In this document: positions 18,739 to 63,729 of the stretch, one piece after another
Layout of the letters: every line of letters begins with the position of its first letter
Position numbering within the stretch: the stretch's first letter is position 1
DNA from: Stylophora pistillata
Lineage: Eukaryota
Reading direction: 5' to 3'
Assembly (NCBI RefSeq): GCF_002571385.2
Contig: NW_019217993.1
Span: 62,307-126,306, forward strand
Length of the DNA: 64,000 nucleotides
Notes under the pieces: generated by a model
Told to the model about the DNA's origin: nothing
The model's database searches: none
What the model saw: only the letters and a program-made list of their open reading frames with translations
Translations under genes and position numbers: made by a program

Positions 18739-21700
18739 CTAATAGTAATTAGGTCCAGGCGTAGAATTGCTGGCCATGTAGGTAGTGCTGCCACTGTAAA
18801 ATCGCGCTGTATTTGTTACTTCGGAATTTTCTCCTGAATTAGCTGTGACATCTTCAACCTGTTAAAAATTTCTTAAAGTTAAGATTGCTGATGATTAAGA
18901 ACCTCTTATCACGCACACACACCTATTCTCAGTGACCCTGTTTTAACGTAGACAAATAATCAAGAAAAGGATTTTAGGGGTCTTAGACACCAAAGATAAA
19001 CAGTTCTTCTTTACAGCCAACAGTTACAATTGGAGATAAGCGGCCATGCGCTTTCATTAATATTTGTTCAGTTATTTCAACCTCACCTCTGGCATGAGAT
19101 CAGCTTTTCTTTCCTCTAAATCCCCTAGCTTTTCTCCCAGTTTCTCCAATTCTTTTTCGAGACGACCGTTGTTTGATTGAAACGTTTGGCCTCTTTGCTC
19201 AAGGATTCGGGCTGTGCCTTCGTTAGAGACCTTCGATGACTTCAGGAAAATAATGACATCGATTAATTCAAAACGCATGTAAGCACGTTAATTGCATAGT
19301 GTAACTGGGAACCTATATTTTTAACTGGTTCCTTCGGCTTTAAAACTTCCTCTCTTACAAATCAAGTTACCTATCTTATGTTTTGTTTCCTTTGAACTCT
19401 AGCTAGAGGAACTCAGCTTCTATTCGAGTCACTTTCACTCATCAATGCTCAGTTTTAGCTCCTTCTGCCTACAATTACCAGTGTTAAAAAAGCACAATTC
19501 TGCACTTTTTGTTAATAGTTTCCTAAAAATAGGCTGCTTCATATGGCTTTATAACATGACAGTGCAACAATTTGCGTTTTCTTACCCTTCGTTCTCCACT
19601 GTAAACCATGGGAAACTGTAAGGCTGACGAGGCCGTGGTCGTCATTTCTTGAGCAGTTTTCAAAACTGGACAATTCTTTCCACTCTCCCACTGTACAAGC
19701 TCATTGTTATAAAACTGAGCTTCTTTCGTTGCAATTTTCAACTTTTCGTTTTTGTGTCGTAACTCTTGAAGTTCTCGCTCTAGGAGACTTAGTTCCCGTT
19801 GTCTAGGACTTGACAGCTGCGTCTCACTCCTCAGTGAACTGACGTCTCTCCCGAGGCTATGCGCGATCATCTGCTGTTCCAGTAAAGCTCGTTCTAGTCT
19901 ACTCTTGCCTTCCTGAAGTTCTAGTATTTCGCTTCGTAGGTTTGACAAGGTGTTCTCATAAATCTTCCTTTCGTCTTGTGATCTTTTGTAAAACTCTTGT
20001 TCCAGGAAGACCTTCAATTCCTGTGTGATCCTTTGAGTTCGTTGCTCTATTTCCATTTTCTCGTGCTCAAATTGATGTTCCAACTTACTCTTCTCCTTCT
20101 TAAAGCTTTCCTCTGCTTCCACGATCTTCCTTTCTGCTTTGGCTAATTTTTCTTTGAGCACAGCTATAGTTGCGTCTGCCGATCTTTGGTTAGCTTGAAC
20201 TGCCTGTCTGTTCTCTTCTCGGAGTCGGGTCACCATTTCTTGCTTTCCCTTATCGACCTTGTTTCTCCACTCTGTCATTTCTGTTTCATACTTCTTCTCT
20301 AGCTCTCGTTTTTCTTTCTTGAAGGATTCGGAAAGACAATTCTTTTCCTCTCTCATCTTGGAAAGCTCCCTAGACATAGCCTCCAAGGTAACATTTAGCA
20401 ATTCTTTTTCATGTTCCAATTTTCCGGACATTTCATCTTTGTCCCTCTGACTTTGCTGAAGCCAGGATTCCTTTTCCCTTAACAACAGTTCGTTTTGCAT
20501 CCTCAATTTTCTTTCCGCCTCCAGCAATCGTTCCTTCTCTGCACGAAATTCAGCCTCTAGTTTCTGGAAAGAATCCTGCTGTTGCTTTTCCCGAGTTGAT
20601 ACTTCTTTTGTTATTTTAGCTTGGTAGTCAAGACGGATTTTCTCTTCAAATTCTTCCCTCTCAGTTTTAAATTTGGCTTCCATATCCAGCATATCGGTTT
20701 GCGAACGTTCTATGAGTTCTATTCTGTGTTTTTCCCTGGCTTCCCTCAACTCCATTTCTAGCTTGTACTCTATCTTACGACGTTCTTCGGTGAAGCGGTA
20801 CGTCAGTTGTTCTTTGGTCCTTTCAATCGTCCTCTCCAGATCGTATATCTTCCTCTCCATCTCCAACTTGGCCCTTGTGAGCGTTTCTACTTCAGATTTA
20901 TACTTCTCTTCGCCCTGAGTAAACCTCCTGTTCTCGTCTTGAATCCTCTTATTATAGTCTTCAATTAGTTGTTTCTTTTCTGCTAGGAATTCGTGCTGCA
21001 GGTCATTCTTCTCCTTTTCCAGTTCCTTACGGGTCTTCTCTATTTCCTTACTGCTTACTTCTCTAAAGTACTGCTCGCGTTCATAACGAACCGTATTGAT
21101 CTCGTGCTTGTATGTTTGCTCAAGTTGACTTAGTTTCCTTTCACAAATCTCCCTCTCGCTGGTTGTTTCTTCTTTCAGATCCTTTAGCTGCTTCTCATAA
21201 CTCTCCTCTAAAGTTTTCTTTTCTTTTAAGAGTTTTTCTTTTTCATCTCGATGTCTATAGCTGGCTTCTTCCATTTTTCGTTTGGACTCTCTGTTCTTTT
21301 CCTCAAAAGTGTGTGTCTTCTGCTGGAGTTCCTCCCTCAACGTCTCGGCCCTCTTCCTTTCACTTTCGTATTTTTCTAGTAAACCGTGAAATTCAATGCT
21401 AAAACGATCTTCGTTTCTCTTTTTCTCCTCATTAGCTGACTCGGCCGAGTCCTTTAAGCGTCTGATTGTACTCTCTAGCTCACTCATGATCTTTTGTAAT
21501 CTGTGCACTTCAACTGTTGCCCTATCTTTTTCACTGATGTATTTTTCTCTCTCCATTTCGTGCCTTTCTTTCAACTGCTCAAACTCCACTTTATATTCTT
21601 CCTCTGAATCTGAACATTTTTTAGCCATTGTTGCTAGATCTTCGGTAATTCTTCTATTAAGGTACTCCAACTCTGTTATTTTTAATATTAAGGCGCCATT

Positions 21701-24700
21701 CTCCTGGTTCAGTTTGCTTTCCTTGGCTGTCTTACTCTCAAGTTGAGATCGTAGGCGAGATAGTTCGTTAAGCATCTCACGATTTGCTGTCTCAACCTCC
21801 AAAGACGCTTTTATCTTTGTCTCGTATTCTTCAATCTTCGTATTAAGGTCTTTTATGGTTGCTTCATTTTGCTCTTCAGTTTCGCTGAGAAGTCTTTCAG
21901 CATCTTCTAATTTCAAGCGTAATCGTTCCGATTCATTGTTTAATTTTCTGTTTTCATCTTCAAGCATCTCAATTTTGTTTTTCATTGCGAGGGTATCTTT
22001 CTCCCATTCAAGGTTTTGCCTGGAAGCTTCCTCCTCAAGTCTTGCTACTGTGATAGTTAGCTCGTTTACCACCATAGTAAGCTCTTGCTTTCCTTTTTCC
22101 AGCGTCGCAACGGCTAAATCCTTTCCCTCCAATTGCTTATTCACATGGGCTAAGTCATCTTCATATCCGCTTTTGTGGTCATGAATGTCCTTTTCATGAC
22201 TGCTCTTCAAATCTTCCATGTTGTTGTTGTATTCTTCCTCTGCATTGCTGTATTTTGTCTTCCAGTTTGTCACTTCCCTCAGAAGCTCCTGGATTTCTTG
22301 GTTAAGCTTGTCTTTCTCCTGGGTCTCTTTGGTGAGTGAATCCTGTAGCTTTGATACCTGTGACATGTATCTCAATTCAATTTCTTTCCGTTCTCTAACG
22401 ATTCTTTCATCATAATTAGCTATTGTGTCTCTCTTTGAAACTTCAAGACTTTGTATACGGCTCAACAAACCCCTCTTTTCACTTTCTAACCCGCTAATTT
22501 TTTTTTTAAATGAAGCTGTCTGTAAGGTAAACTCATCTTGACTTTCCCTAAGATTGTTTTGAACTCGATCTAGCTCCTTCTCCATTGTTGCCACATGAAC
22601 GCTTTTAAGATCCAGGTCCCCCTTCATTTGCGCAATAATTTCCTTCATTTTATCTACCTCTTCTTCACTTCTGTTCTTGCTTTCTTCCATCCACTTCTCA
22701 CGTTTCTTTATTTCTTCTTTTAGTTCGGCTGTCTCTGTTCTATGCCTGGTGTTCTCCTCTGTAATCTTTCTGTCTAGATTCTGGCACTTCTCTGCTAATC
22801 TGTCGTTTTCTCTCGTTTGCTCAGCTGTCTTCTGATCATACTGGTTTTGCAAGTCCTTTATTTTGGTCTCCAGATCTCTTACTGTTTGCTCTAATTTAGA
22901 TATTATAGACTCTTTCTCGGTTTTTGTTTGCTGTAACTTCTTAGCATGTTGTGTCTTCAAAATGTCCATTTCCTTTTTTAATTGCTTTCCCAATTCTGCA
23001 TTCTCTCTTTTCATCTTGTCAGCCATTTCCTCCTTTGTAGTTTTCAGAGTCGTTTCGTACTGCTCTCTTAATTTTAACATTTCTTTGCGGAGTTTGTCCA
23101 GCTGTGTCTGTAGTTTCTTTTTCTGCGATTCGAGTTTCTCTTTTTCGGCTGTAAAACGAGAATTTCTTTTCTCAAAATCTTGCAGCAGATCTGTTATCTT
23201 AACCTCGTACTTTTTAACAATCTCACTCTGTCTCTCGATGAGCTGTTGCTTTTCTTGGTCAAAGTTTGCCTCAAGCTCGCTCTTCTCCGTTTCACATTTC
23301 TCTTTTAGAGAAGTTTTAATTTCTTTGATTTTTAATTTGTAAGTCTCTTCTATTGTCGCACATTTTTTAGTCAATTCATCTTCCTTTTGGCTGTGAGCTT
23401 CGTTCAAGGACACTTTTTCCTCTTTTAGTTTTTCTAACTTTAAAGCCATCTCCTCTTGCATATCGGCTATCTTCTTTTCGTAATCAGCCACAGTTTGTTC
23501 GTGACTTTCTGTTAGCTTGGATTTCTCATCAGCATATTCCTTATCCATCTCGTCTTTTTCCTTCTCATATTTTTGTCGAAGTTCTTTCTTCGTTTCTTTA
23601 ACAAGCTGTTCATACTTTTCCACGCTACTTGACAATTCCTCTCTCAGCCCTTGAATCTTTTCTTTATACTTCTGTTCGAGACTATTCATGGCAGCCTCTA
23701 AATCTGTCAATTTCTTCTCGTACTTTTCTTTGATTCCAGTTATTTGTTCTTCATACGATTTAACTGTGTTTGCATTGGACACCTTTAGCTCCTCTATCTG
23801 CTTTAAAAATCTTGACTCTAATTCTTCCTTTTCCTTTTCGAACTTAGCCGTCATTTCCTCCTTAAGCTCCTTGGTATTTAATTTATGCTTCCTCTCCAAC
23901 TCAGATATTTCTTGTCTTAGTGCCTCAAGAACTTTTTGATGTGACTCCTTTAGGCTCCTCAGTTCATTTTCCATCTCATCGCTTTTTGCATCAAATTCTT
24001 CTTGGAGACTAGTTATCTTTTCTTCATACTCTGTTACTACAGTCTTGTGGGACTCTTCCAAACTGTTTTTCTCTTTGAAAAATTTCTCCTCCATTTCACT
24101 TTTTTCCTTATTGCATTTTTCTGTCATCTCATCTTTGACCTCTTTAAGCTGTTTCTCGTGACCCTGTTTCAAAAGTAAAATTTCTTGCTCCATTTTTTCC
24201 ATGTTCTTCTTGTTGGTCTCTTCGAGCCTTTCTATCTCTTTTTCCATTTGAGCGATCTTCACTTCATATTCTTGTTGAGTGCTTGTCAATTTTGTTTCAT
24301 AACTCTGAATCGTGGTCTTATGGCTTTCAATCACTTCTTCTTTCTCTTTCAAGAAGTTGTCTTCAAATTCAGTCTTTTCCTTTTCATACTTTTCACGCAG
24401 CTCCTGCTCCATAGCTTTCATTTGGTCTTTGTACTTCTGTTCAAGGGAGTTAACCTTTTCCTGCCATGTCTGAATTTCAGCGGCATGTTTCTCTATTAGC
24501 TGTATTTTCTCTACCTCCAGCTTCGAAACAATCACTTTGTTTTCTTTTCGAATTTCCTGTATTTTCATCTCACCATGTTGTACAAGTTTCTTGTACTTGT
24601 TTATCAGGTCTTGCTTGTCTGTATCAAATTCACTTTCCATGGCATTTTCTTTCTGTAGGTATTCCATCTTTAGCTTATCTTGGAGCTCCTTCATCTGTAG

Positions 24701-25735
24701 CTCGTAGCTTTCCTCTAACTCGTTCAATTTTTTCTTCAGCTCTCTAATTTCCTCCAAAGAACCATTGTAGCTTGTTTCAAATTTTTGCTTCTGCGCTTTG
24801 AGCTGCGCTAACTGTTCCTCGTATTGTTCAGAGATTGAAGTTATTTTCGCTTCGTATTCATCCAGGGCTTTTTGGTGAATTTCCATCATGGATTCTTTCT
24901 CTTTAGTGAAGGCAGCTTCCATCTCACCCTTTTCAACTTGGCATTTTTCTGTCAACTCGATCCTCAGGTTTGCTAACATTTCTTCGTATTGTTTCTCAAG
25001 AGATGAACATTTTTCGCGCCATGTGGTCACTTGTGTGCTGAGGTTGGTATTCTTCTTCGCAAGTTTTTCTATGTCGAGTTTAAGCTGTCCTAGTTTCACC
25101 TCATACTCCTGCTGAATTTGTACAATCTTCATCTCATACTCTTTCGTGCTCTTCTGATGCGTCTGCAGCAGTCCCTCGTTTTCTGCTCGAAGCATCTGTA
25201 TTTGTTCTTCAAAGTTATCTTGCATTTCATCTTTTTCAGTGGAAAACCTGGTTTCCATTTCAGCCTTCTCCACCTTGCATTTGTTTGAAAGCTCCCTCTT
25301 CAAGTCTTCAATCATACGAAGATTTTCTATTTCCATGGCGGACATTTTTTGCTTAAGTCTTTGCACTTCTCTTTGAGACTCGTTGTACTTTTTTTGCCAG
25401 TTATCACGCTCGATTTTGAGTTGCCCGATCTTTGTCTCGTATTCTTGCATCATTTTTGTTTTCGATAGTTCGTAATCCGTGACCGTTTTTTGATACATAT
25501 TATTGAAACTTTTCTTTTCCCCTTCCAGCACCAGAATTCGTTGATTAAGAGACTCGATTTCCGCATTGTTATTTTGGTCCGTTGGAATTGTTCCTACGAC
25601 TTCCATGCTCCAACTTCCTCCTTGGCCCTCCATTGGAATTTCATTGGTAACCATGGAATATGAAGTAGGTTCAACATAATAAGGACTTCCCCAACCATCT
25701 ATGGCTTGGGACTCATTGATTTCGACCACGGACAT
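18739..25735 (-). CDS. Giant coiled-coil protein C, about 2,140 aa
   Basis: Giant exon 19586-25735 (acceptor near 25752; donor AGG|GTAAGA), exon 19087-19239, terminal exon 18739-18858; all phase 0. E/K-rich helical periodicity throughout and no globular domain recognised. The terminal exon frame is uncertain. Confidence 0.8.
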
Positions 25736-26089
25736 GTCTGTGATATTCTCCTAATTTAATAAGGACACATAAATAATCTTTAACGCTCTTGTCTTGTTTA
25801 GATTACCTACACATTCTATCACTAATCTATTTTATAACAAACGAGTTTTATTGTATGAGTTAAAGAAAATTTGTTGTTTTTTGAAAACTAAAGGTTGTGA
25901 AGAAATGGTATTTCATACAAACATGCTGACAATGATTGCTAAATTATGACACGGGTGTGTTCTCTATGTATTTTCAACAAGGTCTTGGTGCAACGTTTTC
26001 ATCGTAGTTAATGTTTTGTTTTGCTTTTTGGGTGCATGTCATAAACTTAAATCCAAGATAATCACGAAGGCAAATCAGAACAAAAAAAA

Positions 26090-26295: not shown

Positions 26296-26423
26296 ATCCA
26301 TGTCAAATTAATTTGGAAATGTATGCCAAAGACGTAGTGGGAGATAATTGAACCAATTAAACATTGAGCTTGGCTGTAATCATTATTTCTCAGTTGATGC
26401 GTGCGTTGTGATTGATCAATTTT

Positions 26424-26508: not shown

Positions 26509-29500
26509 CCCAGTTCAAGGCTACTTTTTTCAGTCGCTTAAGTCTCTCGCTATCTATCGCCAATCGCTGGGAACTAGTGACAAATTGAAATATTGAATGT
26601 TTTGTACTCTTAAGATCATGAGTTGATTAAAACTTAATTGTGAAGGACTTAACGATGAAATCGATTTAGCGCGTTTTCGTGTAGACTTCTTTTCGTCTTG
26701 TTAGAAATCGTTTTATTCCGTCATTTTCTAAAGCAAACTCCACAGACACGGAGAAAAGAGAAACTGTCTTGTTTCCTCGTTTTTAAGTGTGTTGTGTAAG
26801 TTATAGATCTTTGCTCATTTTTCTCCTGTTTCCATTTAGGACCCGCTCGCTTTAGGGGCTCGCACTTGGTTCATAATTTACAGATTGTACCTCGACCACG
26901 ATCAGTAAGAAGTACTTGTTTTTTGGTCAAGTTTCCTTTCCAAGTCCTTGCAAGTTATTCCGAGGGGCTAGGCTTAATTTACTAAAGGAAAACGGTTTCG
27001 GAATTTTGCCTCCAAAGAGTCAAATCGAATCTAATTTAAGCACAAAACTGCGAATTTGGATGATTGTGGTTAAATCTTTAATATATACCTTGCTATATTA
27101 GTTTTAAACACCAAAGAAAAACAGCCAAGAACAAATTTTGGGTATAATTACCCAGTTTAAGTAAAAATTAGACTGGAGTTATTTTTAAACTGTCACTTTA
27201 TATGTTTCTAATAAAATCTTAATGTTAAATTGTAAATTTTTTTGGATTGAGGAAGAAAAATGAAAATACTCACAAATTTGAATTTCACAAGTAAAAGATG
27301 AAGCCTTGTTGCTGTCTGTAAAATTTTGCCAGCTAATGAATTAACACATCAATTTTTAACATAAAAAAGATTTAAGAGCTCTTATCAAAACGGTAGCGCC
27401 GATAGTGAGAAATACTTTGAATATCCAAGTTTTTGATTGATGAAAAGTGTAAGACTGACAGTTCACCAATTTTCTGGTACAGAAAGCATGTCCTTCATGT
27501 ATTTTTCTGTTGTTCATATCCATCTTAGCGCAAAGAGCAGCTGCCAATATTATTGTGCAAAGGAGTTTCGTAACGAACGTTTATCATAATTTTGCAAACC
27601 TACCTGAATTTCGTTTCCTGAACTCTATGAAGTTTGACTTTTCAAAAAATGTTCTGCACACAATAACTACATATTCTGTACAAGGACTAAGTCAGATTCG
27701 TCTGCAACGATAAAGCTTTCGTTTCTTAGTTGACAGTTCGAAGAATTTCTATGTTCTGGCACATAGACCGATTTTCTCTAGGATGTAAACAGTTGGTTAA
27801 GTAAAATATTGTCAACCATGGCGAAATCCAATCAGAGAAGTTGGTTTTGTCACGTCAAATAGATTTGCATTTCCCATTTAGCAGGTCACGCGGAGATGTA
27901 TCTTCCCTCATCAATAATGTCAGTAATTTAAAATTGCATTAAAAAAATAAATTTGAAATGTAACCTTAAATCAAAGCTTTACCCGTCAAACTAATGAAGA
28001 AAATAATCTTTTTTTGGAGGGGGGTGGGGACTTGTTGCTGAGAAATTATGATTTTACCCTCAAACCATTTTAAAAAACAGGAAAACTACAAATAAGCTGC
28101 CATTTTTCATTTTTATGCAATTTGCTCCAAAGCCGTGGGATATAAATGCTACGTAAAACCACAAATCTCCCGGGATTTTACAAAGGGAAAACCTCAATTA
28201 CCGTTATCCGTTTGGTGGCATGTAGTCAATTCTTTAAGAATTACCATGGCCTTGTTTCGTAACGTGTCCTGCAATTTTTTTCACCAGGTTGAGCGAACTT
28301 ATTCTACTTTAAAAAGCGGTGTTGGTTTAGGAATTTAGGACTCGGGTGGTTTTGCGGTTTGGTCTAATTATGCACCAGCAAAATGTTAATGTCATGCTGG
28401 CTCCTCTCCAATGCATTAAAGATGCTATGAAGGAAGGAAACAAAAAAGTGTTCTGAAGTCAAGCTGATTGAATAGTTCCTGCTTTTATGAAGATCGTGAC
28501 AAATGACGTACTTATTGAATAAAATGAAGGTCTTCCAGTCCATGTGTCGATGCAAATTTTATGGCATTGAGCCTTACCCAGTGGAGGGGGGTGTTAATTG
28601 ATGTGTAGATCGAGTTAAAGACAAACTTTGATTTTGCACCTTTAAATCTTCCTAGCTCCAGGAGGATTATTGAAATGCTTTATTAGTGTTACTGCCAAAA
28701 GGCGTGTCCTTACGTGGCCGCTTACAGCAATGATTTCATACGCTCGATCGGAGGGAGAGGTTTGAACTAATGAAGAACCAACAAAAATACAAGTTTACAA
28801 AATTCAGAAATATAAAACTGAAAGGCGGCTAAAGCGAACGCGATGAACCTAATAACTAGGAACTTACATTGTATCGGCGCTGTAGGCCGCCAAAAAAGGC
28901 AACTCTAAACCAGATGTTCTCTCGGTGAAATCATGGTGAAATCAACGATGAAATTAAAAAGCTAGAATATTAACAACATGTAAATTATACCGAACGCGGG
29001 AAAGAAAAACAAAACGTATTCCCGAGGGAATGCTAATAAACTGAAATAAAATGCAAAGAATGCTAAATTCTACTATTAGTACGCCGAAATTACCAGCCCA
29101 CGTAAAGAATTCCTATTTCTTGCTGGTGATGAGTAAAAAAATTATCTTCACTACATGTAAAACTCACACTGTATAAGATCAAAGCCCCTTTATTTGATCT
29201 TTTTCCTTTGCTCGCTAAAAGCTACTGTGTGCTTCACTGAAGCATTCAACACGGCTATTAAAAACCCCTCAAAGTGACCCCTGTATCTGAAGGAAAATTT
29301 GTTAACGATTTTACAGCTCCAACAACGTCTCATTAATTCAGACATAAATAAAATTTGATTACATGATAAGTGAAACTGATATCACTTTTAACCCTACATG
29401 TGTCTCGTGCAAACGTCGACTTAACCTATCCTTTAAAGTAGAAATCAATAATAAAAAATATGAAGAATAAAAGTATCGATCCCTCCAAGAGAAAATCAAA

Positions 29501-40410: not shown

Positions 40411-40790
40411 CCGCCTCCCGGTTAGCTCAATGGGTAGAACGCTGGACTGTTGTGCGGGAGGTCGAGGGTTCGAGCCCCGGCCGGACCAACAGTCAAGGTC
40501 TTAAAATAATTGAGAAGAATATGCTGCCTTTCCATAACATCAAGAAATGGTTTAGATATTCTATTCTTCTCGGATAGGGACGAATAAATGGAGGTCCCGT
40601 CTCCGTAGGGTTAGGGGTAGGAGACGTTAATTTCCCACGCACGAGATTACTGTGTGATGGATGTTCTCTCCTGGGGTGGGATGGGTGGGTTGTTGTCTTG
40701 CGTTTCATACATGAGCCTCTGGCTCGGGCAATATGGGTAACCATGCCCCACGTAAAGACATTAAACTTTGATTACTATTACTATTATTAC
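40411..40790 (+). mobile_element. Full-length tRNA-derived SINE, possibly Deu/Nin-domain type
   Basis: Pol III A box TAGCTCAATGG and B box GGTTCGAGCC; about 300-nt non-tRNA body shared with 15441-15605; short (ATT/ACT)n tail. The body CGGATAGGGACG..TAAA..GAGGTCCCGTCT resembles, from memory, the DeuSINE central domain. Confidence 0.8.
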
Positions 40791-41182
40791 TGCATAAACT
40801 GCAAAATATTACTGTTTTCAGGTTTCACTTTAACAACACGATCTATTTTGCTTAAAATTTACATTTAGTAATTTTAAAAGCATGTTTCCACACTTTCATT
40901 CTGCAATAAATAATTGCACACAGGTAAAAATTTGAGCGAAACAAACGATCTTCTTTAAAGTAGATAGCAAAGATTTTAGTCAGTTAATTTTCGCTAAATG
41001 AAAGCTCAATCTGAATATTTGGTAAAATAAAAATCTAAAATTTAGCTCCGATATCAATGAAATTACGAGCTCGTGATCAATATTATAACGCAATCTGAAG
41101 CTATGATTATTAAATATCCTGATGAATTTAAATCCGGAAGTGTGCTCTTCGTCAATAAGTAAAATATCGATCCTATTTCGAG

Positions 41183-50100: not shown

Positions 50101-53100
50101 CACCCTTCTATTCTTTGCTTGCAGCTTTTCTGTTCTTTCCTGCTCCTCACTTAGCTTTTCTGTGCTTCCTGATGAAGGTCTCCTGGCGCTTTTGAGGTCT
50201 TCGAAAAGACTGCCTCCGATATTTTCTTCAAGTTGATTGTGGATAAGTCTCAAGTCCGTATTTTGTTCCTGTAGGTCTTTGATTTTTCCTTCGTACTCTT
50301 TGATAACGTCAGCTACTGAATACTTTTCATCATCTTGACCAGGCACCAGCTTTCTTAATGCCAACAGCTCTTTTTCATAGTTATTTATGATGTCCTCTAA
50401 GTTCTTCTCCTCATATTTCATCACATTAATCACGTTTATGTCCATTCTCTCATCGCAGGAGTCTACTTTCTCATCATCTTTTTCTCTTTCCTTCTTAAAA
50501 CAGTCTAACGCGGCATATAGTTCTGCACCGACGGTGTCTTCGAGATGTTGCAACCTTTCCATTAAAATCCTCTTTTCGTCCTCTGATCTTTCGATGTTAT
50601 TCTGCAAATTTGCAATTGGGTCAGACACGTTGACGTCATCTTCGTTTTCCCCAGTAGTTATTTGTCCGAGTGCATCTAGTTCTTTTTCGTACCTTTTCAA
50701 AATTGTTTCGAGATTCAATCCTTCATCTTCAAGAAGTGAAATAGCTTTTAGCTCATCCGAATGTGTTTTTCTGTCATCTGTGTCGAGTTTGCTACGTGAG
50801 GGCCCCTGTGTATCTTCCTTGCATGTACCTGTAAACTTTCTCGCGTCTTTATATTCACCGGTGGGGCTACATTTGTATGACAAATCTTCAGTTGAGGGAG
50901 AAAGAGCTTCCAGTTCCTTTGCATCAAATTGACTTGACAAAAAACAGTCCTCCTTCTCTGCCATTACCAATAAAGCCTCGGCCAAATCTTTACCGATACC
51001 ATCCGTATATACCTTGTTTTCTCTTTTGAGGTTCTCAAGACCTTTTTCGTACATTGCCACAATATCTTCTAAAGGTTCTTGAGAGTTATTTAATATTTCA
51101 ATGGCCTTCAGGGCTCTCTTCGTCTTTACTTGACCAACTTCCTCCTTCGCGCTGGTTTCGTACCCATCTATTACTTCAAGATTGTTAACCTCTGGTTGTA
51201 GGTCTTCAAAGAGTCCATCACCAATCTTTCCTCGAAGTCCACGCAACCCATCCTCGAGAGCATTGTTTGTTTTAGTGAGGTTTTCAAGTTTGTCTTCGTA
51301 GTCTTTCACGATACCTGATATGGTATTTCCCTCCTCTCCTTGGTCTGGGACCAGTTTTCGAAGGACTTCTAATTCTTTTTCGTAATTTTTTAGGACGTCT
51401 TCCAACGCTCTGTTTTCATTTTTCATAATAATTGGTGCCTCTAAGTTTGAAGACTTTTTGTCGTCGAGAGTATACGTATCAGACTCTTTGTCACTTCTCT
51501 TCAAATTATGTAGGTCATACGTAAGGTTAGGTCCGATATTTCTCTCAAGGTGATTCATCATTTCCACCAAATGTTTCTTCTCATTTTCTAATTCCTCACT
51601 CCTATCCTCGAGGTCTTTTATCAGCTCTGTAAATGAATCACTTTCCTTTGACCCGGCAGTAGGTGACTTCTGTATTGTTTCCAGCTCCTTCTCCGGCGTT
51701 TTGAAGACATTTGTGGTTGTTGGGTCTTCGTGTCGCTCGAGTTCAGTATCGTGTGGTTTGTCTTCATCGGGAGAAACGGGCTTGTCATCCAAACCATCCC
51801 CACTTGAATGTTCACTGGATTTAGAAGAATCCGGCTTACGTTTTGTAGGAGCTGTAGCTTGAGTTTCCTCTTCGGCCGTCAGGATCAGGTCCGTGACCTC
51901 CTGGTTTCCAATTGCTTCTTTCAAAATCTCATTTTCTTTCTTAAGGTTATCGAATGTACTCATCTTGGCGTCAACAAAGTTCTCTTCATTTGGAGTACCA
52001 GGAAAGAGTCCTAATGCTTTCTCATACAATTCAAGAACGTCTTGTAGAGATGAATCGACATCTCTTTTCATGATGAATGGGGCATTTAGGTGACTAGCAT
52101 TGTTCGCGCTGGGCATTTCATCGTCAGATTGATGATCCTCGTCGGGCAGTGATGCCAAGATATCTTGTACTAAGTCATTACCAACTTTGTTGGCCAGTGT
52201 GTTGTAGTTATCCATTGCATCCTTGTTTTTGCTTTTAAGATCATCGATTTTTTCTTCATAGTCTCTTACAATGTCTTCCATACAGGTATTTTCGCCTTGG
52301 TTTGAATATAGTTTTCTCAAAGCCTCTAGTTCCTTCTCGTAACTTTTTATCACCCTCTCCAGCGTTTGATCATTCTTTTGCATCATTATTGGTGCATTAA
52401 TGTCATCTTTCTGACCCACTTCGTCAACTTCCTCTTTCTTTTGAAAATCTTCGTTTTCCACATTTTCCAACTTGTGAAGAAGATTTCTTCCTACCAATTT
52501 CGCTAGACCAGATAATCGATCTGCCAGTGCCTCGTTATCTCTCTCCAGATCTGATATCTTATCTTCGTAATTTGATATCAGCTGTGAAATTGATACGTCT
52601 CCGTAATCCTCACCTGTGACTAAGCTCGAAAGTTCATCTATCTGTTTTTCGTACTTTCTCAAGATATTCTCCACGGTTTCACCGTCGTCCTTTAGCAAAT
52701 ACGTAGATTTTAAATCATGTTCCGACTCACCACTTTTTATATCAAGGGAATCCGGATCGCGCTTGGTTGGGAGTCCTTGATCTGTCTCGTCCTTTCCCGA
52801 TGTCTCCTCATCCCTGAAATCCGAATGTGGAAGTAGAGTATGATAAAGGTCGTTGCCAAGTTTGTCTTTCAACAAACCAACTAGGCTCTGAAGTTCGCTG
52901 ATTTCTTCCTTAATCCTGTCTTCGTAATCTTCTATTACCTCTTCGAGAGTCTTTCCGCTCGTTGCCATAAGCTCAGGTGCCCGTAACTCTTTTTCCAAAC
53001 AATTTACTCCCTCAGTGCTAAATAGTACAGAGCCTCTGTCTGGCAGTGCGATATCGTTTTCTTTTGCGAGGTCCTTATCTGGTGCTTTTTCTTCTCTCTC

Positions 53101-56100
53101 TTCGTGTGTTTCTCCACATGTAAGACTTTCTTGAGGTACTTTCGCCCCTTCTTCGTCGTCTAGCGCTCCTCCTTCCACAGTGCTCAGTGTCTCCATGCCC
53201 AGTAGAGTATTTGTCAAGGATGGTCCTAATTTAGACCGCAAAGAATCCAGTCCGTCTTCATAAGATGCTATGACATCAAAAAGAGTTTTTCTATTCTCCA
53301 AGGCAATATTCGGTGCCCTCAGTACCCTCGCGTTTGAGGTTCTCTCGCCCTGTTGGTTTTGCTGTAATACGATTTCTTTATCATCCATTACGTCTGTCAA
53401 ACTTCCTTCTGCTGAAAAGACTGCTTTATCTTTTTGAGGTTGTCTATCGTCATGTTGTTCAGTGATCTCAGATTGGTTCTGATGCATTTCACTATCATTT
53501 GCTTCAATTTCATCGTTCACAAGATCATCAAGGTGACCTTCTTCTTTATCATCTATCAAGGCATGTACAAGATCTGCTCCAAGCCTTTCCTTCAGGACTT
53601 GAAGCATCTCCATGTTTTTCTCCTGAGCGTCAACGATACCCTTCACGTTCTCGTCCATCTCACGTATGTTGTCTGGCTCTGCTATACTAGATTCCACATC
53701 CATTCCTGCTTCCTTATTTTCTTTGACCTCTACTGGTTTTTCAAGATTTCTTTCGTACTGAGCTATGACGTCTTCAAGTGTTTTCCCACTAGCTCTCATT
53801 ATAATCGGTGCATTGAGTGGTTGTTTTATTATTTCTTCTTCCTCGACAGCCAAATCAGATGTGTGTCTATCGGCTGGAGAATCGAAATACGATGACAAAA
53901 TTTTATCTAGTATTGGTGGTAAGTAATTTGGCTCAATACTTGATCTTCCATCTAGTTGCAGTGGAGTTTCTGCATCTGCCAACATATTTTTATTTCCAGT
54001 GAAGAGTTCCTCAGAAATGCTCACATTTGTTTGTATTTTGTGGTCTTTATCTTTTAAAGTCTCGACTTCAGGAGAACCATACCCTGCAGCTTTCCTTTTC
54101 ATCTCTCTTTTCCTTCTCCTTTTTCCTTTCTTTCTTATTTCGCTTTCCGTTTCTTCAATAGGAGTGATGTCGCTATCTGCATCTTTTTGACTACTATACT
54201 CACTCTCTTGAGTAGTCTCTAAGGCCAATGTCTTATTTTCAAGCAGTTCATCCCGTGTGATTTTCCCGTCTTGAACCCCAGGTTGCAGTTCCTGCTCTGT
54301 ACCTTCGATGCTAATAGGCGTCTTTGGCATTTTGCTCATTTGTAGAAGAGCTCGAGAAAGATCTGTGCCCAGGTTCTCCTTCAGCAAGCTGTTTTCACGC
54401 GATAGATTATCTAGCTCTTTTTCATATGCCTTGATCACGTTTTCAAGATCCTCATCATATTTCCTCATGACTGCGGGAGCTGAAATGTTCCAACTGGAAT
54501 TGTGAGGTTTGTCTTCTATATCAAGGATATCACGTAACAGATCTTTTCCAAGCATGTCTCCTATTAACTCATTTGTTTCCTTCTGCTCGCGCAATATGCT
54601 TTCCAAAGTCTCTCCTCGGTTCCGTACCGCGTCAACAACGCCTTCAAATTCTGCCTCTTCACTCGGTGGTCTTTCACTCAACAATGCATCGATTAGTTCC
54701 TCACCAATTATCTCTTTAAGCGTTTCCAAATCGGAATTTAGTTCGCCATTAATATCGCTGAGCTGTTTATTTTCTTCGCTCATATCATTGAGTATGTCAC
54801 TAATTGTTACCCCATTAGCTTCTACTTCGTCAATCACTGCTTGATGTTGATTCTTGCCCTCCGATTCATTTTCTTCAGTATCAAGTGTTACGAGAGAACT
54901 GACTAGATTCTCGCCAATTTTGGAACTCAACAAATCGATCAGATTTTTTAAATTCTCGCTTTGTCTTTGAGCAGCAAGTTTTAAATCCTGCCGTTCTTTT
55001 ATCAGTTCTATTAACGTCTTCTCACCTCTTGCCATATCTGCCAGAATACCGTGAATGTGAAAACGTGGCATGGAGTCCCCATTTTTTCTTACTTTTTCAG
55101 CTAACATACCCACCACACCTGATTCGCGTATTATGTCAGAGATTTGCTCTTTTCGTGCCTCAAGTTCCCTCTTTTGCTGTTTTAAATCGTCCATGACCTC
55201 GTTCATTTCCTCGTCTTCGAATCCTATGTGCAACTTTGTCTTCTCTTTTTGTACATCATCCAACCTAAGTTTTAGTTTGTTCTTTTTCTCGCGAAGTTCC
55301 TCAATACTGGCGGGGTATTCTTGCCCATTTGAATCGCTATCGTAGTTATCGTCGAGTGCTCTATCGATTTCAGCCAAATAATCCCTTAAACTCTCTTTTT
55401 CCACTAGCGACTTTTCAAGGTCAAGAATGTCCATGTGGATGGAATCTTTGCTTTCGTGGACTTCTTGCTTGAGAAGATTTAATTCTTCCTCTACTTCTTG
55501 AAGCTCCTGGTTGCCTTGTTCGATCGCATTCTCTAACACTTCCAACTCTTGGTTTAGTGCCAGCTGTTCTTCGTCCGAGAGCCTCTCTTGTCCACTAATG
55601 TTAACTTGCATCTCCTCTAATGCTGCTTCTACTTCTGCCCTTGCAGTTGTAATCGTTTCCTTCAATAGTTGCATTTTTACATCCAGTTCCCTTCTTTCGC
55701 AATTCAAAATCTTCAATTGTTCTTCTTTGGCGTCTTTTTCCGCTTCTATCTTTCGTATTTTTCTTTCTCTACGATCAATCATATCATTAAGCTTTTTAAG
55801 ATCACTTCCAAGCTTTATTTTTCTTTGATAGCTGTCTTTGTTTGGTCCCGAGCCAGAACACTGTTCCTCAGAGGAAAGTTCTTTTTGCTTCAAAAGATCT
55901 TCAAAAAGTTGTGCTAGTTGAAGGTCTTCTTGTAGCTTAGCCTTTGTGGCAATCAGAGTTGTAACATTTTCAAGGACAGATTTTTGGGGCTCATCTGAAG
56001 GGTCACAATCTTGCAACATGATTTCAAGGCGATTGTCTATTTGAGAAAGGTTCTCTTCCAGTTCTCTGCGCTTTTCTTCAGTTTCCTCATTCAGTTCTTT

Positions 56101-59100
56101 GTTAGCTATGCCCATCTCTTCCTCACATTTTTCATCAGCAATAGGCAAAGGTAGCTCTGTTTCACTTCTTTCATTCTTCTCTTTCTGGATCTCTTGAATG
56201 GATTTTTCTATCAGTGCGTCATCACTGGTCGTACGCCGCGTGGTGTCACTATCTCGGTATTTTGCTAGTTCTTTGGCATCTGCTTGTCTTTCATTCTGCT
56301 TTCTCATTTTAGAAGGTAACTTAATTTTATCCTCTTTAGCATCGTGCTCATCCATCTCCTTAAGTCTGAAATCTATAGGAAACTTTTCTTCAATTGCATT
56401 TTTAAGAGCACGCTCAATCTCAATGAGATCTTGCCCCTTTCGTTTCGCTTCTGTTAGTTTTTCAGCTTCTCTTTTGACAAGGTTTTCCATCAATTGTTGT
56501 TTATGGCACAGTTCCTTTCTCTCCTTAGTGATTGTTGGTGTTGTCTCTGGATTAAGAATCAAACATGCTTCGTTGACGAATGTTTTAATTTCGTCTGAAA
56601 CACTCTTGTTATCGTTTTTGTCGGGATCATCAGCAATGCTTTCTTGTAACCTCTCTACAACGTCCGTAGCACGTTCTGTGTCACTTTTAAACTCTCTCGT
56701 AATTTCGGCTTTCTGTTCAAGAAGAGCAACCAACATCTCAGAGGCCCGTGCCATTTCATTATCTATTGAATCTTGAAATTTATTTATGTCGTCTTCAAGT
56801 TTTACCTTTCGCTCAACAAGCTCTTCAATAAATTCAGATTGTGGTCCTCTCAGAGCACCTGTGTTTAGACTCTGCAATATCTTCTCGTTGGTATCCTTTA
56901 GCTCTAGAAATAGATTTTCTTTACTCGCTATAAGCCCCTTGATGTTGGAGTCTGAGTCTCCATATATTTTTCCATTGTTCTTGAACTGCATTGCATCAAT
57001 GAAATTGTGCTGTTCGTACGAAATATCACTATCTAGAGCATGGATCTTTTCCAACAGACGTTCTCTTTGCGAGAAGAGTAACTCTAGCTGATCAACATCA
57101 GGGTTTTGCTCGTCCACACCACTTGAGTCACCCTTAAGTAATTGGTCCAGCCCAGCTTTCCCTCTTAATAGCTTTTGTTTTTCCTCCAGAGCCTGGATGA
57201 GTTGTATTGGATCGCTGTAGCCCACCTCTCTCAGTTTGCTTTCTTCTTCATTGATTTTTTCTTTCAGGCATTGCAACTCCTTTTCAGCTGCGACCTTATA
57301 TCCTTGAGTCATGCCCACTTTCTCAGCTGAGGTGATATCATCAGTAAGTTCACGTTTAAGCTCATATGGTAGGTCAATTTTACTCATTCCAAGGTCCAGT
57401 TCTTCAGTTCTCCTCTCGATTTCTGCTTCCTTTTCTCTAATACCTTCTGCTTCATCGAAAAGTCGTTGTTTATCTACAAAGAGGGGCTCAGAGTCTATAT
57501 CTACAGGGTCGTCGACATGATCCGTCGGATCGTTAGGTACTTTTTTGCTTTCGTTATCTGGTAGCGTACCCATTAAATCAAGAGAGCTCCTGATTCGTGC
57601 CAGTTTTCGTTTGAAGGGCCTTAATCTGTTGATTCTCTTTTCTAGCATTCTGCCGCATCTCTCAATCTCATTTTCTGTCCTCTTTATTTCCTTTTCAAGC
57701 CTTTCTCTCTTATCTTCTGCGTCTGCATTACTTTTAACAACCGACATTATTTCAGTCGGAAACTCATTATTACTCTGTCTTTTAGGATACCCATCGTTCT
57801 TGGTTTTGGGAATTCCTTCTTCTAAAGCTGCGAGCTGAAGTTTCAAATTAATGAAAGATTTCTGATAGTCTTCCTTTTCCTCACCCGACGCCTTCTTTGC
57901 TGCCTCTAGCGCCTTGCTCTTATATTTGTGTTGTTGTGCTTTTTCATTGAGATCATCTTTTAAAACATCCATCTTGCACATGAGCCCAGAGATCGTTTTG
58001 TCCTCCTTGCTTCCTAACTCCACCATTGCTTCTTTCTGTTCGTTTAACAGATTACTGATCTCATCAAGTTTTGTACAGACGTCCTCTTTTTCTTTCAGGA
58101 GATGCTCAGTCAATTTTTTATCGTCATTCCTTCTCAAACATTTTTCAATTTCCCCCAGTGAACGCAGCACTTCAATTTCCTCGTTTTCCAGTCGCTTATT
58201 AAGATCTGCAAGCCAATCGCTTCGTGTTGCAGCAAGTTCTCTTATCTGAGCGTCGACTTGCTTCAATTCATCTGTAAGTTGTTCGCTCTCCGTGTACAGA
58301 TCATTTATACTTTCTAATAGATCTTTACCTTCTACTTTCTCGTTCTTAAGTTCTGGAATTTCTTCGACAAATTCTTTTCCCACTAATTCACAAAGTAAAT
58401 TGAATTTATCCTGTAGCATTTTGTTATTAGTATTCAGCTGCCTTATGAGATCTTGGTCATCAACTGGAGATTTGCTCTGTGGTAATTCGGACTCATCGTC
58501 TTCGGTGATGACTGCCAAACGGGATTCTGCTCCGCAGGAATCAGTAAGATTGTCATCTCCCGGAAAATCAAATGTGTTTTCGTTACTGGGTTTCTGCGAG
58601 TTTTTGTCTTCCTTATTTCTTTCTAAGTTCTCACCTTCTTCAAGTGACCCACAAGAGGGCTGAGTTGTTGGGTTTGATTCTTCGGGCCTAAGTAGTTTTG
58701 GATCAGATACTAGCACTCGTATGGACGCGGTAGAGTTATCGGGACTTTCATCTAAAGAAATTCCTTCCTCAGCTTCTTTACTTTCCATTTCACGGCCAGT
58801 AGTAACCGAGTCGTTTTCTGCGATAGTTTGGCATGCTGCATCTCTCCTGTAAATATAAGGTTTCTCCTCCCCTGTCAGAACTTTAGTATCGGTTCCATCT
58901 TCTTCAGAACTGCCTCTTCTTTCTTTATAGTTTTCTCCCTCTGTTGTTCCCTCATCTCTCATTTCACTGGGATAATCTTTTTCATGCCGGTCTCTTTTTG
59001 AATCCCCATCCATTAGAGACGACCCATTTTCATTTTCTGTCTGATCATCTCCCGCATTTTCTTCTTTATTATCATTGTAATGCTCTGAAATCGGGATACT

Positions 59101-62100
59101 GTCTTCATCGAAAGCTTGTGCTTTGGATTGTTGGTCATCTTTATCTTGGTTTTTTATTTCGCGGTACGTTTCCCAGCCATGGCCATCAAGTCTCTCCTCG
59201 TTCTTTTGAAGAGATTTATTGTTTCCTAATTCTTCTTCCCCACCCACCGAGTTTTCTGTTTTGAGTTTTTACTCTTTTTCTTGATCTTCATTTTCATCTT
59301 TATTCCCTCGGAACGCCTCCTCTTTTTTTGTTCCCTCATTGCGTTGAGGCTTTCCTATAGACCCGTCATCCGGACGTTTAGCTGGTAAACCTGAACCAGT
59401 GTAGACTTCATCTATTCCTCCTGCCAAAGTATCTTCTTTTCCTTGTTCTCCGACAATTTTCTTATCATTGAGATTATTCCCCAGCCCTGGATCGAGGCCA
59501 ATTCGGTCACTGGCGTTGTTCGAAGTCTTTCCATCCTCAAGAAAGATTGGTTTAGGCTGAGGTCCAATTCCCTCGCCAGAGTCGTCCTTTTGGATATCGT
59601 TGTTTTGAAGATGATCCTCACGCTTGTTCTCGTCACCCTGATTAATCTTCTCCTGAGGAATCCCCGTGGCTAGTTTTTCGTCTTCAAAGCCATTGACCAG
59701 CTGTTTTTCTCTTTCGTCAGGTTTTTCACCCGGAGTGTTTCTCTTGTCATCGAGCTTTCTTTTGGTGTCTTCTTGTTCCTCCTCTTTCAAATCTCTCTGG
59801 GAGAGCTCTGATGTCTCATTATCGCCCCTACTGGTTAAAGAGCCATCGACTCTCTTCTCAGTTTCTAAGGAGCGCTCACCTTCAGTACCTTGCTCAGACA
59901 AATTATCATGATCAGCACTTGGTATGTCATTTATATCAAATGTCTGGGTGTCAATGTTCCGTTTGGTTACTAGGATTTGTTTAGTAGGATTACCAAACTG
60001 CGTCTTGTCGACTAATTGTTTGATGCCATTCAGCATCTCATTCTCTAGATCGTTTCGTTTATTGCGTAGCGAGTCTTTAGCTTTAGCTAATTTTCTCATG
60101 ACTTTCTTTAAACTGTCTCTGTATTCTCCATAGTACACTCTGCTCAGATTGAATCTCTCGAGATTAAAGGCAAAATATAACTCAGATTTCTTTATATTTA
60201 ATGCATCATCCTCCGTTGACTCAGGACCAGAATATGCTCCTTCGTCGCTTTCACCGATTGGAGTTGTCGGACCAGAATCCTCGGATTCTAAATCTGAGCT
60301 CGCACCAGAAGTGGATTCAGAATCGTAAAGAGAATCTTCGTCGTTGAGAACCAGTTCGATAAGGTTCTCCAGGGCAGCCCTTAATTCTTCTCTGTTGCAA
60401 ATCTCATCATCGGATACCAAAAGTCGTTTACAGTTTCTGACGTTCGCTTTTCCTATGGGTGATGTTACCACCAAACGCGGGGGGTCTTCACTAAGAAATC
60501 TTTGTCGGTTGTTTTGCTTTTCTTCTCCTTCTGAGATGGATTGAGTGCTGGATAACACTTCTTTCAATAAATCAATGGCGTTATTGAGATTGGCAACGGC
60601 TGTTTCATGTTCTTTTTGCCTTTTGTTCTGTAAATCAGCTAGTTCTTTCTTCAGTGGAATTGTAAGGTCCAGGTTTTCTTTCTCTCTCTCAAGTCGATCT
60701 TGGTCTTTCCGTCGTTTTTTAGCTTTATTCCTCTCAGGAGCGCTTCTTTTCTGCGCATCAAGGAGTTTCCTCAGTGTATCATTTTTGTCCTGCAACAATC
60801 TTAGCTCCATCTCACTCTTTTCCGACAGTAAAGTTTGTAAGTCTGCAATGTCTTTTTCGTATTTCAGGATAATTTCCATTTTGTCAAGATCATGATCCTT
60901 TTTCATTTTGTCTGTCTTGCAGTTAAGAGCACTCTCTAGTTCATCCTTCATTTCCAAGTAGTAAAGTCTGCCTAAGCAGAATCGTTCTAGATTGAAAGCT
61001 TCCTCCAAATTAGACTTCTGCCTCAGAAGATTTTCAATAATTTCTCCTTCAGTGCTCATCACAAATTCCTTATGTTGTGTTTGTAGTTTTTCCATTAGTT
61101 CCGACTTTTCACTTTTGAAATGCCTTTCCAGTTCTTCGATTGATCGTTTCATTTCTTTTTTCTCTTGCCTCACCTCTTCCGCAGTGTTTGAGGAAGAGTG
61201 TGTACTGTTCTCACTATTGGGTCTTTTCATGCTCCCATAACCGCCTTTGTCTTGCCTGAACTGAAGGTCATCTGTTGTTCTTCCTTTGTCTTCGGTGACC
61301 TTAAACGTTACACAATCCAAGGTTCTAGCTCTATTTTGGTCGTTTTCTTGAAGATATTTCAGTGCTAGCTGTGTCTCTTGAACTCTTTTTGTCTTCTCAT
61401 CTGCCAGCTCCTTCAGTAGCTCGTTGAGTTCTTCCTGGTGTCTTTCTATTAGATGTAGTTTTTCAACTTCATGTGATAAGTGTGCATTATTCAACACTGC
61501 TTTGATCTTTTCTTTAACCTGGTCATTACTAGCATTGTCATTTTCTCCACCTGTTCCTTCATCGGTCAGATGCTCATCCAGAGCTAGAAGCCGATCGAAG
61601 GGGGAAACTACTGTCTGTGACCTGATGTGGGTCACATCATCGCATTCAACTTTGTCATCGCAAAGCTTGTCCAGCTCCAAGATGGCCTGATTGATTGCTT
61701 CCTTTAGTCGCTTATTGGATGTGCCGAGATGTTCCAAGGTATCCTCGTTTTCCTTATCAGTTAGACATTCTTTCAATCTTTCTTGAATTTTCCGAATACC
61801 TTTGCTTACATCTTTTTGTTGGACCCGCTGCGGTCGCGTCTCCTCTTTCCTTTCTGTCTTTTCAAAAAACGCTCCATCATTTTCCTTCCCCACTAATTGG
61901 CCTTCTTCTTCTTCTTGATTTTCTCCTACTGGGATTTTGTTTTCTACTGTTTTAGGCTCATTGCTCCCCATTGCGTAGCTGCATGCGATATCACCTGCGT
62001 CGTCCTCAACGAAGTCCTTTTCCAGAACGTTCTCACTGGTGGCAATGATAAAGTGTTCTGGTGTTTTTTGGATTTCTTCCAACCTTCCCTTAAGAATTTC

Positions 62101-63729
62101 GATTTCCCTTTGCAAATTTACCTTTTCATTTTCACTGTTTTTCCTCAGTTCATCTTTTTCCTTGGCAAACTCTTCCATTTTTGCAACAAGTTCCTGATGA
62201 TGTAATGCTTTAGTTTCCTTCATGTTTTTCTCCAATACTTGCAGATCATTTTGCATATTTTGTTCCAGGTTTTGACATTGATTATTTTCCTTGTAAAATT
62301 TTTCCTCCATTCTATTCTTCTCGCTAGCAAACTCCTCCATCTCACCGGCCAAATCTTCCAGTTTCTGCTTGGATACTTCCAGTTCTTTTCTCTGTTCCTC
62401 TACAATTTTCTTGAGTCCATCAAGTTCCCCCTCGTAGATGTTTCGCATGTCGTCTTCCTTCTGTTGAATTTCCAATTCCTTCTCATTTATCATCTCTTCA
62501 TATCGTTGTTCTAAGTCATTTCGTTCAAATTCAAAATTCTTTAACAAATTGAACTGCTCTTTTCTGAATTCTGCCTCCAAACTCTCTTTCTCATTTTCAA
62601 ACTGCTTTTTAAGGTTCTCGATTTCTTTGCGTTGTTTGTTTTCTAATTCTTTGATAGGTTGCTGGCCCCTCTTAATTGCCTCTATCCTCTGCTTGTGTTG
62701 TCCATCCATCTCAGTTAGCGCTTCATCGTGGTCTTGTTTCAGTTTGGCAATTTCGTCGATGAGAGCGACTTCCACGTCCTCTTTGGTCGGACGATCTAGC
62801 TGAGTAAGCAAAGATAGTTCACGACTATAAACCTGAGCTAAACTAAACCTTTCGATTTGCAATGCATTCAGCAATTCTCTTTTCTCTCTCTCTAGCTCAT
62901 CAATAGCTTCTTCTTTTTCAAGAAGCTTCTCTTTACAGCCGATTTCTAAACTCTCCTGTAGCTCTTTTATCTCGCGCTCAAATTGTTGAATCATTCTTGT
63001 CTTTTCAAGCTCAAATTTCTCGGAAAGCAACCTTTCAGTAACCTCTAGCTTAAACTGTAATTCCTTTCGGTGATCTTCTTGGATTCTTTGCCTCTCCTCC
63101 TGAAAGTAACTATTCGTTCGTTCGGTCTGATTCGTAAAAACTTGCACAAGTTCTGCCTTTTCTCGGTCAGATTTCCTCTCTAGTTCTAATTTTTCACCAT
63201 CGAATTCTTCCTTGGCTCGTTTCAACTCAGTTTCATGTTCTGTTCGTTTAATGTAAACATCGCAGTCTGGCGAGGTCCGAGGTAAGCTGTCTCCGTTCTT
63301 CTGCATACGCAACAAATCTCTTCGCAGCATTTTTATTTCTTCGTTTTTATCTGCGATGACATCTTCGAATTCGCGTCTCATTTTTGATTTCTCTTCCTTG
63401 AACTTTTTATCAAGTTTCCTTTCTTTTAAATGATACTCGTTGGCGTGTTTGGCTTTCAAACTTTCCTGCTCACATTCAAATTCGTTTATCTTTTCCACCT
63501 GCTGTGAATGAAATCCTTGCAACAGGTCTTTCTTTTCCAATTCAAACTCATTTCGCATGCTTTCTTTTTCCTGCTCAAACTTTTCAATAAGCTGATTCAC
63601 TTCTTCTTGATGCATCATTTCGATAAATTCTTTTTCCTTGAGAAAACCGCAAACGATGTCATTTTTCTCCGAGGCATATTTCTTGGCAAGAGCGTCGGCA
63701 GTCTCATTTGGCGCTTCGAACTCTTCCAT
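41183..63729 (-). CDS. Giant coiled-coil/helical-repeat protein A, about 7,000 aa if the internal TAA at 59269-59271 is not functional; 5' end uncertain
   Basis: ORFs 59269-63729 and 43033-59247 are in the same frame, separated by one TAA. Donor ACC|GTGAGT at 43063; then exons 42643-42807, 42271-42312 and 41183-41383 (ends TAA), all phase 0 with AG/GT ends. Confidence 0.75.
41660..42125. repeat. Intronic interspersed repeat(s)
   Basis: GCTCGCGCGCGATTGGTC...CCGAATATT...AAACTGGGGAA and GCCAATCAGCGTGCG motifs, typical (from memory) of coral repeats. Confidence 0.35.
45800..55100 (-). repeat. Dispersed protein repeat in gene A, about 26-29 copies of L[KRN]A[PL]x[IV]MxxxxxTLE[DN][VI][IL]xxYEKEL, usually paired with a [IVL]GxxLxxxL motif
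   Basis: Counted by eye in the 5404-aa translation, e.g. LNAPIIMRASGKTLEDVIAQYERNLE, LKAPEIVRSEGKTLENIINRYEKELT, LKAPFIMQKEGKSLENILRKYERELE. Confidence 0.85.

Follow-up and report, generated by a model that had tools for sequence, protein, structure and literature searches.

Giant-exon genes clustered in the coral Stylophora pistillata share a C-terminal helical domain and belong to an unnamed, likely hexacoral gene family

In a 64,000-nt stretch of the Stylophora pistillata genome (assembly GCF_002571385.2, contig NW_019217993.1, positions 62,307 to 126,306; hereafter the window), long minus-strand reading frames fill 19.5–63.8 kb in three blocks. An earlier note, made from the letters alone, had described three head-to-tail genes (A, B and C) of one plan, coding for very long intracellular coiled-coil proteins. 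The layout is as described: the interval 18739..63729 runs exactly from the ATG of A (63729) to the end of the stop codon of C (18739), with B starting at 38442 and C at 25735, and downstream of each giant exon (Table 1) come short phase-0 exons, three in A and two each in B and C. The predicted products, of ~7,024 (A), ~2,660 (B) and ~2,140 (C) residues, are strongly acidic (net charges of −573, −176 and −71), and NCBI proteins of S. pistillata match parts of A and B at 100% identity. Judging from their sequences, A, B and C are almost certainly paralogous, with common ancestry of a domain at the end of the giant exon and of the exon that follows it. As to what they do, we give an even chance to the reading that they are paralogous and likely separately transcribed genes whose products are long cytoplasmic rod-and-linker scaffolds, likely docking through the shared C-terminal domain.

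The shared C-terminal domain and the repeats upstream

The peptides of the first short exon, which the earlier note had aligned between the three genes, were located in exon 2 of each (A2, B2 and C2; Table 1), always in phase 0. Their local alignment scores are 63 (A2/B2), 56 (A2/C2) and 80 (B2/C2), values equalled by none of 2000 shuffles in each of the three pairs, nor by any real heptad-rich window taken from the A, B and C proteins (0 of 118, 0 of 248 and 0 of 248). The short exon is thus shared, but the sharing is not limited to it, as had been supposed: the last ~300 codons of each giant exon, directly upstream of the short exon, form a shared domain, and the common part comes to ~350 residues. 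A profile built from 28 A sequences scores 108.6 bits against B, 39.7 against C and 50.3 against a C orthologue, and a profile built from 11 B sequences scores 91.3 against A, 56.1 against C and 32.9 against the C orthologue. By comparison, window and heptad-block shuffles (30 each per target) reach at most 8.8 bits and reversed sequences at most 10.2 bits, and the coil-rich N-terminal 1,486 residues of A score 0.9–3.0 bits against the shared-domain profiles. In every case the match falls at the end of the giant exon.

The shared domain is 22–30% identical among A, B and C and is the best-conserved block between A and its Nematostella counterpart. A structure prediction gives three long helices and no compact fold (pLDDT 78, pTM 0.26). 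The domain is under purifying selection, with dN/dS of ~0.07 in A and ~0.13 in B compared to 0.10–0.20 elsewhere; note that these values are rough, dS being near saturation. B and C had also been said to share N-terminal motifs. One such motif, SWSMxVVGTI, is real and recurs in 5 of 10 proteins scanned (B orthologues 4/6, C 1/1, A 0/3), but its B/C score is marginal (55, against a maximum of 54 in 5000 shuffles) and in B it lies ~930 residues into the protein.

Upstream of the shared domain each gene carries a repeat expansion of its own, as the earlier note had proposed, with units of ~95 (A), 51 (B) and 91 (C) residues. The A repeat (consensus TLEDVLxxYExEL ... IGxxL) is present in 14–33 copies in all seven A orthologues scanned. 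AlphaFold2 predicts four helices for it (pLDDT 83, pTM 0.44), without a compact monomer fold; its third helix resembles a leucine zipper. It has no detectable kinship with the shared domain, nor with B or C; a Foldseek search with its model returned no match at E ≤ 0.001, and VIA-align gave nothing clear (Z at most 5.1, against unrelated helices). In the PDB, searches by sequence found generic leucine zippers or weak coiled-coil matches alone, and a Pfam scan of 20 copies of the A repeat gave sub-threshold coiled-coil families only; in that scan, a likeness to RH1 or to the CC1-box, considered as a candidate, found no support. In B, the unit and the length of the array vary between orthologues, the head measuring 288–1,300 residues in 13 of them. 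In C, the autocorrelation reaches 0.23 at lag 91, compared to a maximum of 0.148 over all lags in 300 shuffles, and the same lags are found in the C orthologue P0001, which is 52% identical to C.

In 11 pieces of A, B and C, no Pfam match exceeded the curated cut-off of its family, and neither the shared domain nor the ~95-residue repeat corresponds to a curated family; the ESM Atlas held no usable match for the terminal exon of A. No 19-mer exceeds 0.93 on the Kyte-Doolittle scale. These results support the description of very long intracellular proteins lacking a signal peptide, a transmembrane segment and a recognisable domain. Their description as coiled coils holds in part only, as a crude heptad score passes in 12% (A), 13% (B) and 26% (C) of windows.

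A family of corals and sea anemones

A library-wide search of 1.84 billion proteins with a three-sequence profile of the shared domain, which may miss distant relatives, found 58 proteins, two of the weakest looking like noise. Of 70 rows, 14 whose matches were short or weak were left out, and in a quick tree of the remaining 56 domains A, B and C fall into clades of 17, 12 and 7 rows (SH-aLRT 91, 100 and 97, respectively), next to four further clades: D (6 rows, 100), E (4, 99), F (7, 97) and G (2, 100). The uncharacterised lineage-specific family of the earlier note is likely lineage-restricted, as claimed, and larger than the trio, with at least seven clades and sea anemones included. Of the 52 new matches, 30 were looked up as clusters, and three of these carry an organism name (Actinostola, and Nematostella twice); other searches named Stylophora, Orbicella, Montipora and Nematostella, so that all named matches come from stony corals or sea anemones. 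On these sequences, the family is likely restricted to hexacorals. An A orthologue is present in Nematostella, and the N-terminal motif of A recurs in clade D and in the Nematostella protein P0157 (profile scores of 35–55 bits; shuffles at most 11.4). The short exon is established for clades A, B and C alone, since a three-exon profile did not find it in P0232 or in the clade F protein P0142.

The order of B and C is also found elsewhere. At a locus of another coral (L003), B with its two short exons is followed 5 kb on by C, in the same order and on the same strand. Equal-sized source sequences suggest wider linkages, namely A+B+D (950,248), A+B+F (228,799), A+C (472,469) and B+F (2,821,714), and also suggest that Nematostella A, P0157 and a model joining clades E and D lie on one 17.4-Mb sequence. 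The latter model, P0232 (RefSeq XP_048587492.1; 3,440 aa), has a clade E module in front and a clade D module behind it; this is either a true read-through or an annotation that fuses two neighbours.

In public databases, family members are labelled myosin-10-like, trichohyalin-like, CEP290, RNA-binding protein 25 or uncharacterized. The first three labels find no support in Pfam scans: neither half of the giant exon of B, which bears the myosin label, holds a myosin motor or tail family, there is no support for trichohyalin, and P0232, the bearer of the CEP290 label, has no Pfam family at E ≤ 0.01. No description of the family was found in the open-licence literature, searched by gene identifiers, topic terms and motif.

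A proposed scaffold function and its alternatives

In large coiled-coil scaffolds, an end domain dimerises and targets the protein and the remainder spans a distance or presents repeated sites. We infer such a function here from a conserved C-terminal set of long amphipathic helices combined with an upstream part whose length and repeats vary. The ancestor, a gene with a single large exon, would have duplicated in tandem before the split of stony corals and anemones, each copy retaining the end domain as a dimerising and targeting module, while the upstream part would have changed length through repeat copying within the exon; an intron-free single exon would let repeats grow without disturbing splicing. 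A, B and C may then reach across different distances or differ in how many binding sites they offer, docking on a cytoskeletal anchoring site through the shared helical domain. Candidate sites of action are the basal body or another microtubule anchor, a cell junction, or a fibre of a specialised cell. A motif in the tail of A, KKV(T/Q)F, is predicted to recruit protein phosphatase 1 (PP1): KKVTF (KKVQF in Nematostella) occurs in all three spliced A models and RKVRF follows the shared domain in a clade F protein, sequences which we take to fit the PP1-docking RVxF consensus. When the shared domains of A and B were modelled as a complex, without alignments or folded controls, ipSAE was 0.18 and 0.21, against a mark of 0.34.

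Proteins of this build are known. Pericentrin/AKAP9, CEP250/rootletin, CEP290 and giantin are multi-thousand-residue rods with a conserved C-terminal targeting part, some with phosphatase docking motifs, and the present proteins share the length and the conserved C-terminal part; they differ in that no PACT, rootletin, CEP290, GRIP or membrane-anchor family lies above cut-off in them. Of the families proposed for comparison in the earlier note, rootletin is not among the Pfam matches of A, B, C and their relatives, and neither is the PACT domain. A golgin identity was rejected, as there is no hydrophobic segment and no GRIP/GRAB family in the Pfam scans. An AKAP9-fragment cluster in the ESM Atlas scored 0.90 with low recognition, and is a lead only. 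Exons of 6–20 kb or more, with a repeat array varying between species, are found in AHNAK, titin, MUC16 and giant ankyrins. At 20.7 kb, and with up to 7,957 codons in another coral, the A exon is comparable in size to the largest human coding exons, but no sequence similarity to those proteins was detected; the coral repeats are helical or rich in Met, Gln and Glu, and it is the C-terminus that holds the conserved module. Giant coiled-coil scaffolds encoded by a giant exon are a known kind of protein; this family, with its shared domain and the A repeat, corresponds to no curated family and is not described in the open-licence papers searched.

Several observations weigh against the scaffold reading or the gene models on which it rests. 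Large parts of A and B have poor coiled-coil scores, so that these two need not be continuous rods; RNA depth is near zero at the 5' ends of B and C; gene order beyond L003 comes mostly from equal sequence sizes rather than from sequence; and RVxF is a short motif that may occur by chance. The N-terminal motif is missing in 4 of 27 A orthologues, which may reflect contig breaks or tolerated loss. Finally, the reference allele of A carries a stop at codon 1487. We interpret this TAA as a nonsense allele or an assembly error, because the codon aligns to Gln in the closest orthologue (P0094) and 23 of 27 A orthologues, retaining the start methionine and the N-terminal motif, are open from that motif through 6,272–7,957 residues. 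These orthologues are genomic single frames, as most run on into the first intron at their end. P0111 (68 members), one of the four without the motif, and P0116 are A orthologues beginning ~1,750 residues and more in; with so many members, P0111 may reflect a break that recurs, or a truncating allele that is common, in another coral.

An alternative that we regard as unlikely is a self-assembling structural filament system, comparable to intermediate filaments, in specialised cells such as desmocytes, spirocytes or muscle. B would fit with its Met/Gln/Glu head, helical rod and Gly/Ser-rich tail, as would the clade F protein P0142 with a longer Gly/Ser/Met tail and C with its regular 13-heptad repeat, and clustered paralogs recall the keratin clusters. 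Pfam scans of A, B, C and relatives, however, found neither the filament rod domain (PF00038) nor any other intermediate-filament family; rod length and exon structure differ, and most of A consists of acidic linkers and short helices. In bulk RNA the genes are expressed at a low level (mean depth 0–17.5 in 1.9 billion letters per run), although a rare cell type would look identical. A bolder proposal, also unlikely in our view, is that the seven or more old giant-exon paralogs form a modular cytoskeleton of the hexacorals' own, polymerising or co-assembling through the end domain with the repeats as rulers, and that such fibres would anchor tissue or support cnidocytes in place of cytoplasmic intermediate filaments.

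Rather improbable, in our view, is a derivation from the 3' half of a ninein or ninein-like gene that lost its N-terminal dynein-binding part, multiplied, and whose products would anchor microtubule minus ends. A weak match to PF27974 (Ninein_long_CC) is precomputed for P0001 only; this family is promiscuous among coiled coils, as it also covers 82% of a FAM184-like cluster. A ninein-fragment cluster in the ESM Atlas scores 0.87 against the end of A, a lead only, and the C-terminus of P0232, in its clade D part, may resemble that of ninein; Pfam and PDB searches with P0232 gave nothing significant. None of the 30 looked-up clusters is called ninein (three of them carry an organism name), and EF-hand families are absent from the pieces of A, B and C and from 12 relatives, a scan that covers exons of A within the window. 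Residues 807–1518 of ninein are encoded by one large central exon (PMC12651242; PMC12135376), which recalls the layout described here, where short exons likewise come after a large coding exon and the product would be a long, acidic coiled-coil scaffold. In the coral genes, by contrast, the large exon is the first coding exon and is up to ten times longer, and the paralogs form a tandem cluster in which no EF-hand N-terminus was found.

The earlier note named an alternative that we find quite improbable, namely a single locus in which A, B and C serve as alternative giant 3' cassettes; these would be spliced to a common upstream exon or to one another. RNA was mapped over 23121–43120 using three raw runs of stranded reads and one polyA contig set, and a joint was listed only if supported by at least 3 reads from two starts. 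All three introns of A (5–44 reads per run) and both introns of B (0–7 reads per run) were seen as joints on the expected strand, in agreement with the NCBI models; those of C, outside the mapped region, are predicted from splice sites alone. Each gene has its own terminal exons, stop and likely poly(A) signal, with the 3' end of A traced by contig pieces to ~39713, near an AATAAA, and B reads stopping near 29250, and no cross-gene joint was listed, at low depth. Start methionines are conserved, including that of clade D inside the fused Nematostella model, and conserved non-coding blocks lie 2.1–2.4 kb upstream of C. The cassette reading draws on an acceptor-like AG within 26 nt of the ATG of each giant exon, phase-0 compatible in A and C; against it, an in-frame TAA stands five codons before the ATG of B, though a second AG follows the TAA. 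The reading draws also on one RNA run in which 8 of 11 molecules end at 25749, at the acceptor-like site of C (possibly copies of one molecule), and on the Nematostella model fusing clade E and D modules. It keeps some weight because read depth is near zero at the 5' ends of B and C. Note that mature RNA retains the giant exon, since A orthologues are represented by two spliced transcripts among JGI contigs, 24.1 and 23.7 kb long.

A likeness due merely to convergent composition among unrelated coiled coils would be suggested by an identity of just 22–30% and by the false matches that such sequences yield, but is extremely improbable: the real matches exceed the shuffled, reversed and internal coiled-coil controls and fall at the exon end in all genes, intron position and phase are in common, and most of the 58 matches among 1.84 billion proteins are C-terminal.

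Features of the locus

The coordinates are collected in Table 1. In the B array, an assembly gap of six N coincides with an apparent frameshift; one RNA contig lacks 13 letters at this point, which would bring both halves in frame, and B orthologues are continuous single open reading frames spanning both halves. The terminal coding exon of A is 83% identical in Orbicella and 41% in Nematostella. Upstream of C, two short blocks (28165–28115 and 27899–27864) are conserved in another coral, and the depth of the polyA-run contigs is 2.31 in the bin 27123–27789, near the candidate first exon.

Several repeats were also observed. An interspersed repeat at 40410–40750, inside the likely 3' untranslated region (UTR) of A, draws hundreds of reads on both strands, and a similar copy lies at ~15450–15600, upstream of a complement-like gene. 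Between B and C, at 28700–29060, lies another repeat, less abundant and likewise read from both strands. Upstream of the C giant exon, 26423–26508 holds 4.5 near-perfect copies of a 19-nt GC-rich unit, and a short 13-nt tandem repeat is found at 248–294 of the window. Directly downstream of C, on the minus strand at 7800–14970, lies a multi-exon complement factor B/C2-like gene with a signal-peptide-like start and EGF, CCP, two vWA and trypsin-like exons (vWA recognised by Pfam, the others by eye).

Table 1. Positions of the main features of genes A, B and C in the window
Feature	Position	Strand	Remarks
A giant exon, ATG to donor (20,667 nt, 6,889 codons)	43063..63729	-	donor is an RNA joint; orthologues 6,272–7,957 aa
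A N-terminal motif GF-L/I-x-EK and following helix	63460..63700	-	common to clade D and Nematostella P0157
A in-frame TAA, codon 1487	59269..59271	-	aligns to Gln in P0094
A ~95-residue helical repeat, ~27 copies	45775..54825	-	
A shared C-terminal domain, ~300 aa, three long helices predicted	43063..43974	-	dN/dS ~0.07
A exon 2, shared short coil exon	42643..42807	-	RNA joints; NCBI model P0093; shuffle statistics
A exon 3, KK of the KKVTF motif at its end	42271..42312	-	RNA joints
A terminal coding exon, VTF of KKVTF at its start	41183..41383	-	RNA joints
A likely 3' UTR, AATAAA at 39719	39713..41182	-	polyA-run contig pieces 40757–41379 and 39713–40464
B giant exon, ATG to donor (7,303 nt as assembled)	31140..38442	-	donor is an RNA joint
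B Met/Gln/Glu-rich tandem array, 153 nt / 51 aa unit	35872..37727	-	
B six-N assembly gap with apparent frameshift	36850..36855		inside the tandem array
B shared C-terminal domain	31140..32036	-	dN/dS ~0.13
B exon 2, shared short coil exon	30845..31045	-	RNA joints; shuffle statistics
B terminal coding exon, Gly/Ser-rich tail	30190..30690	-	UTR likely to ~29,200
C putative promoter and non-coding first exon (candidate)	27604..28165	-	donor-like site 27603
C giant exon, ATG to predicted donor (6,150 nt)	19586..25735	-	acceptor-like site 25750
C SWSMEVVGTI motif, common to B	25570..25620	-	
C 91-residue (13-heptad) rod repeat	23036..24958	-	
C shared C-terminal domain	19586..20470	-	
C exon 2, shared short coil exon (predicted)	19087..19239	-	
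C terminal coding exon (predicted)	18739..18858	-	

Overall, these data define an unnamed gene family whose members are hidden in public annotation under unrelated labels, and in which a coding exon of 20.7 kb, that of A, stays open at 7,000–7,950 codons across many corals. Because Nematostella has members of the family and allows knock-out and tagging, their function is directly testable. If they do form anchoring fibres, this would bear on how coral tissue holds to the skeleton and on tension in hexacoral cells.

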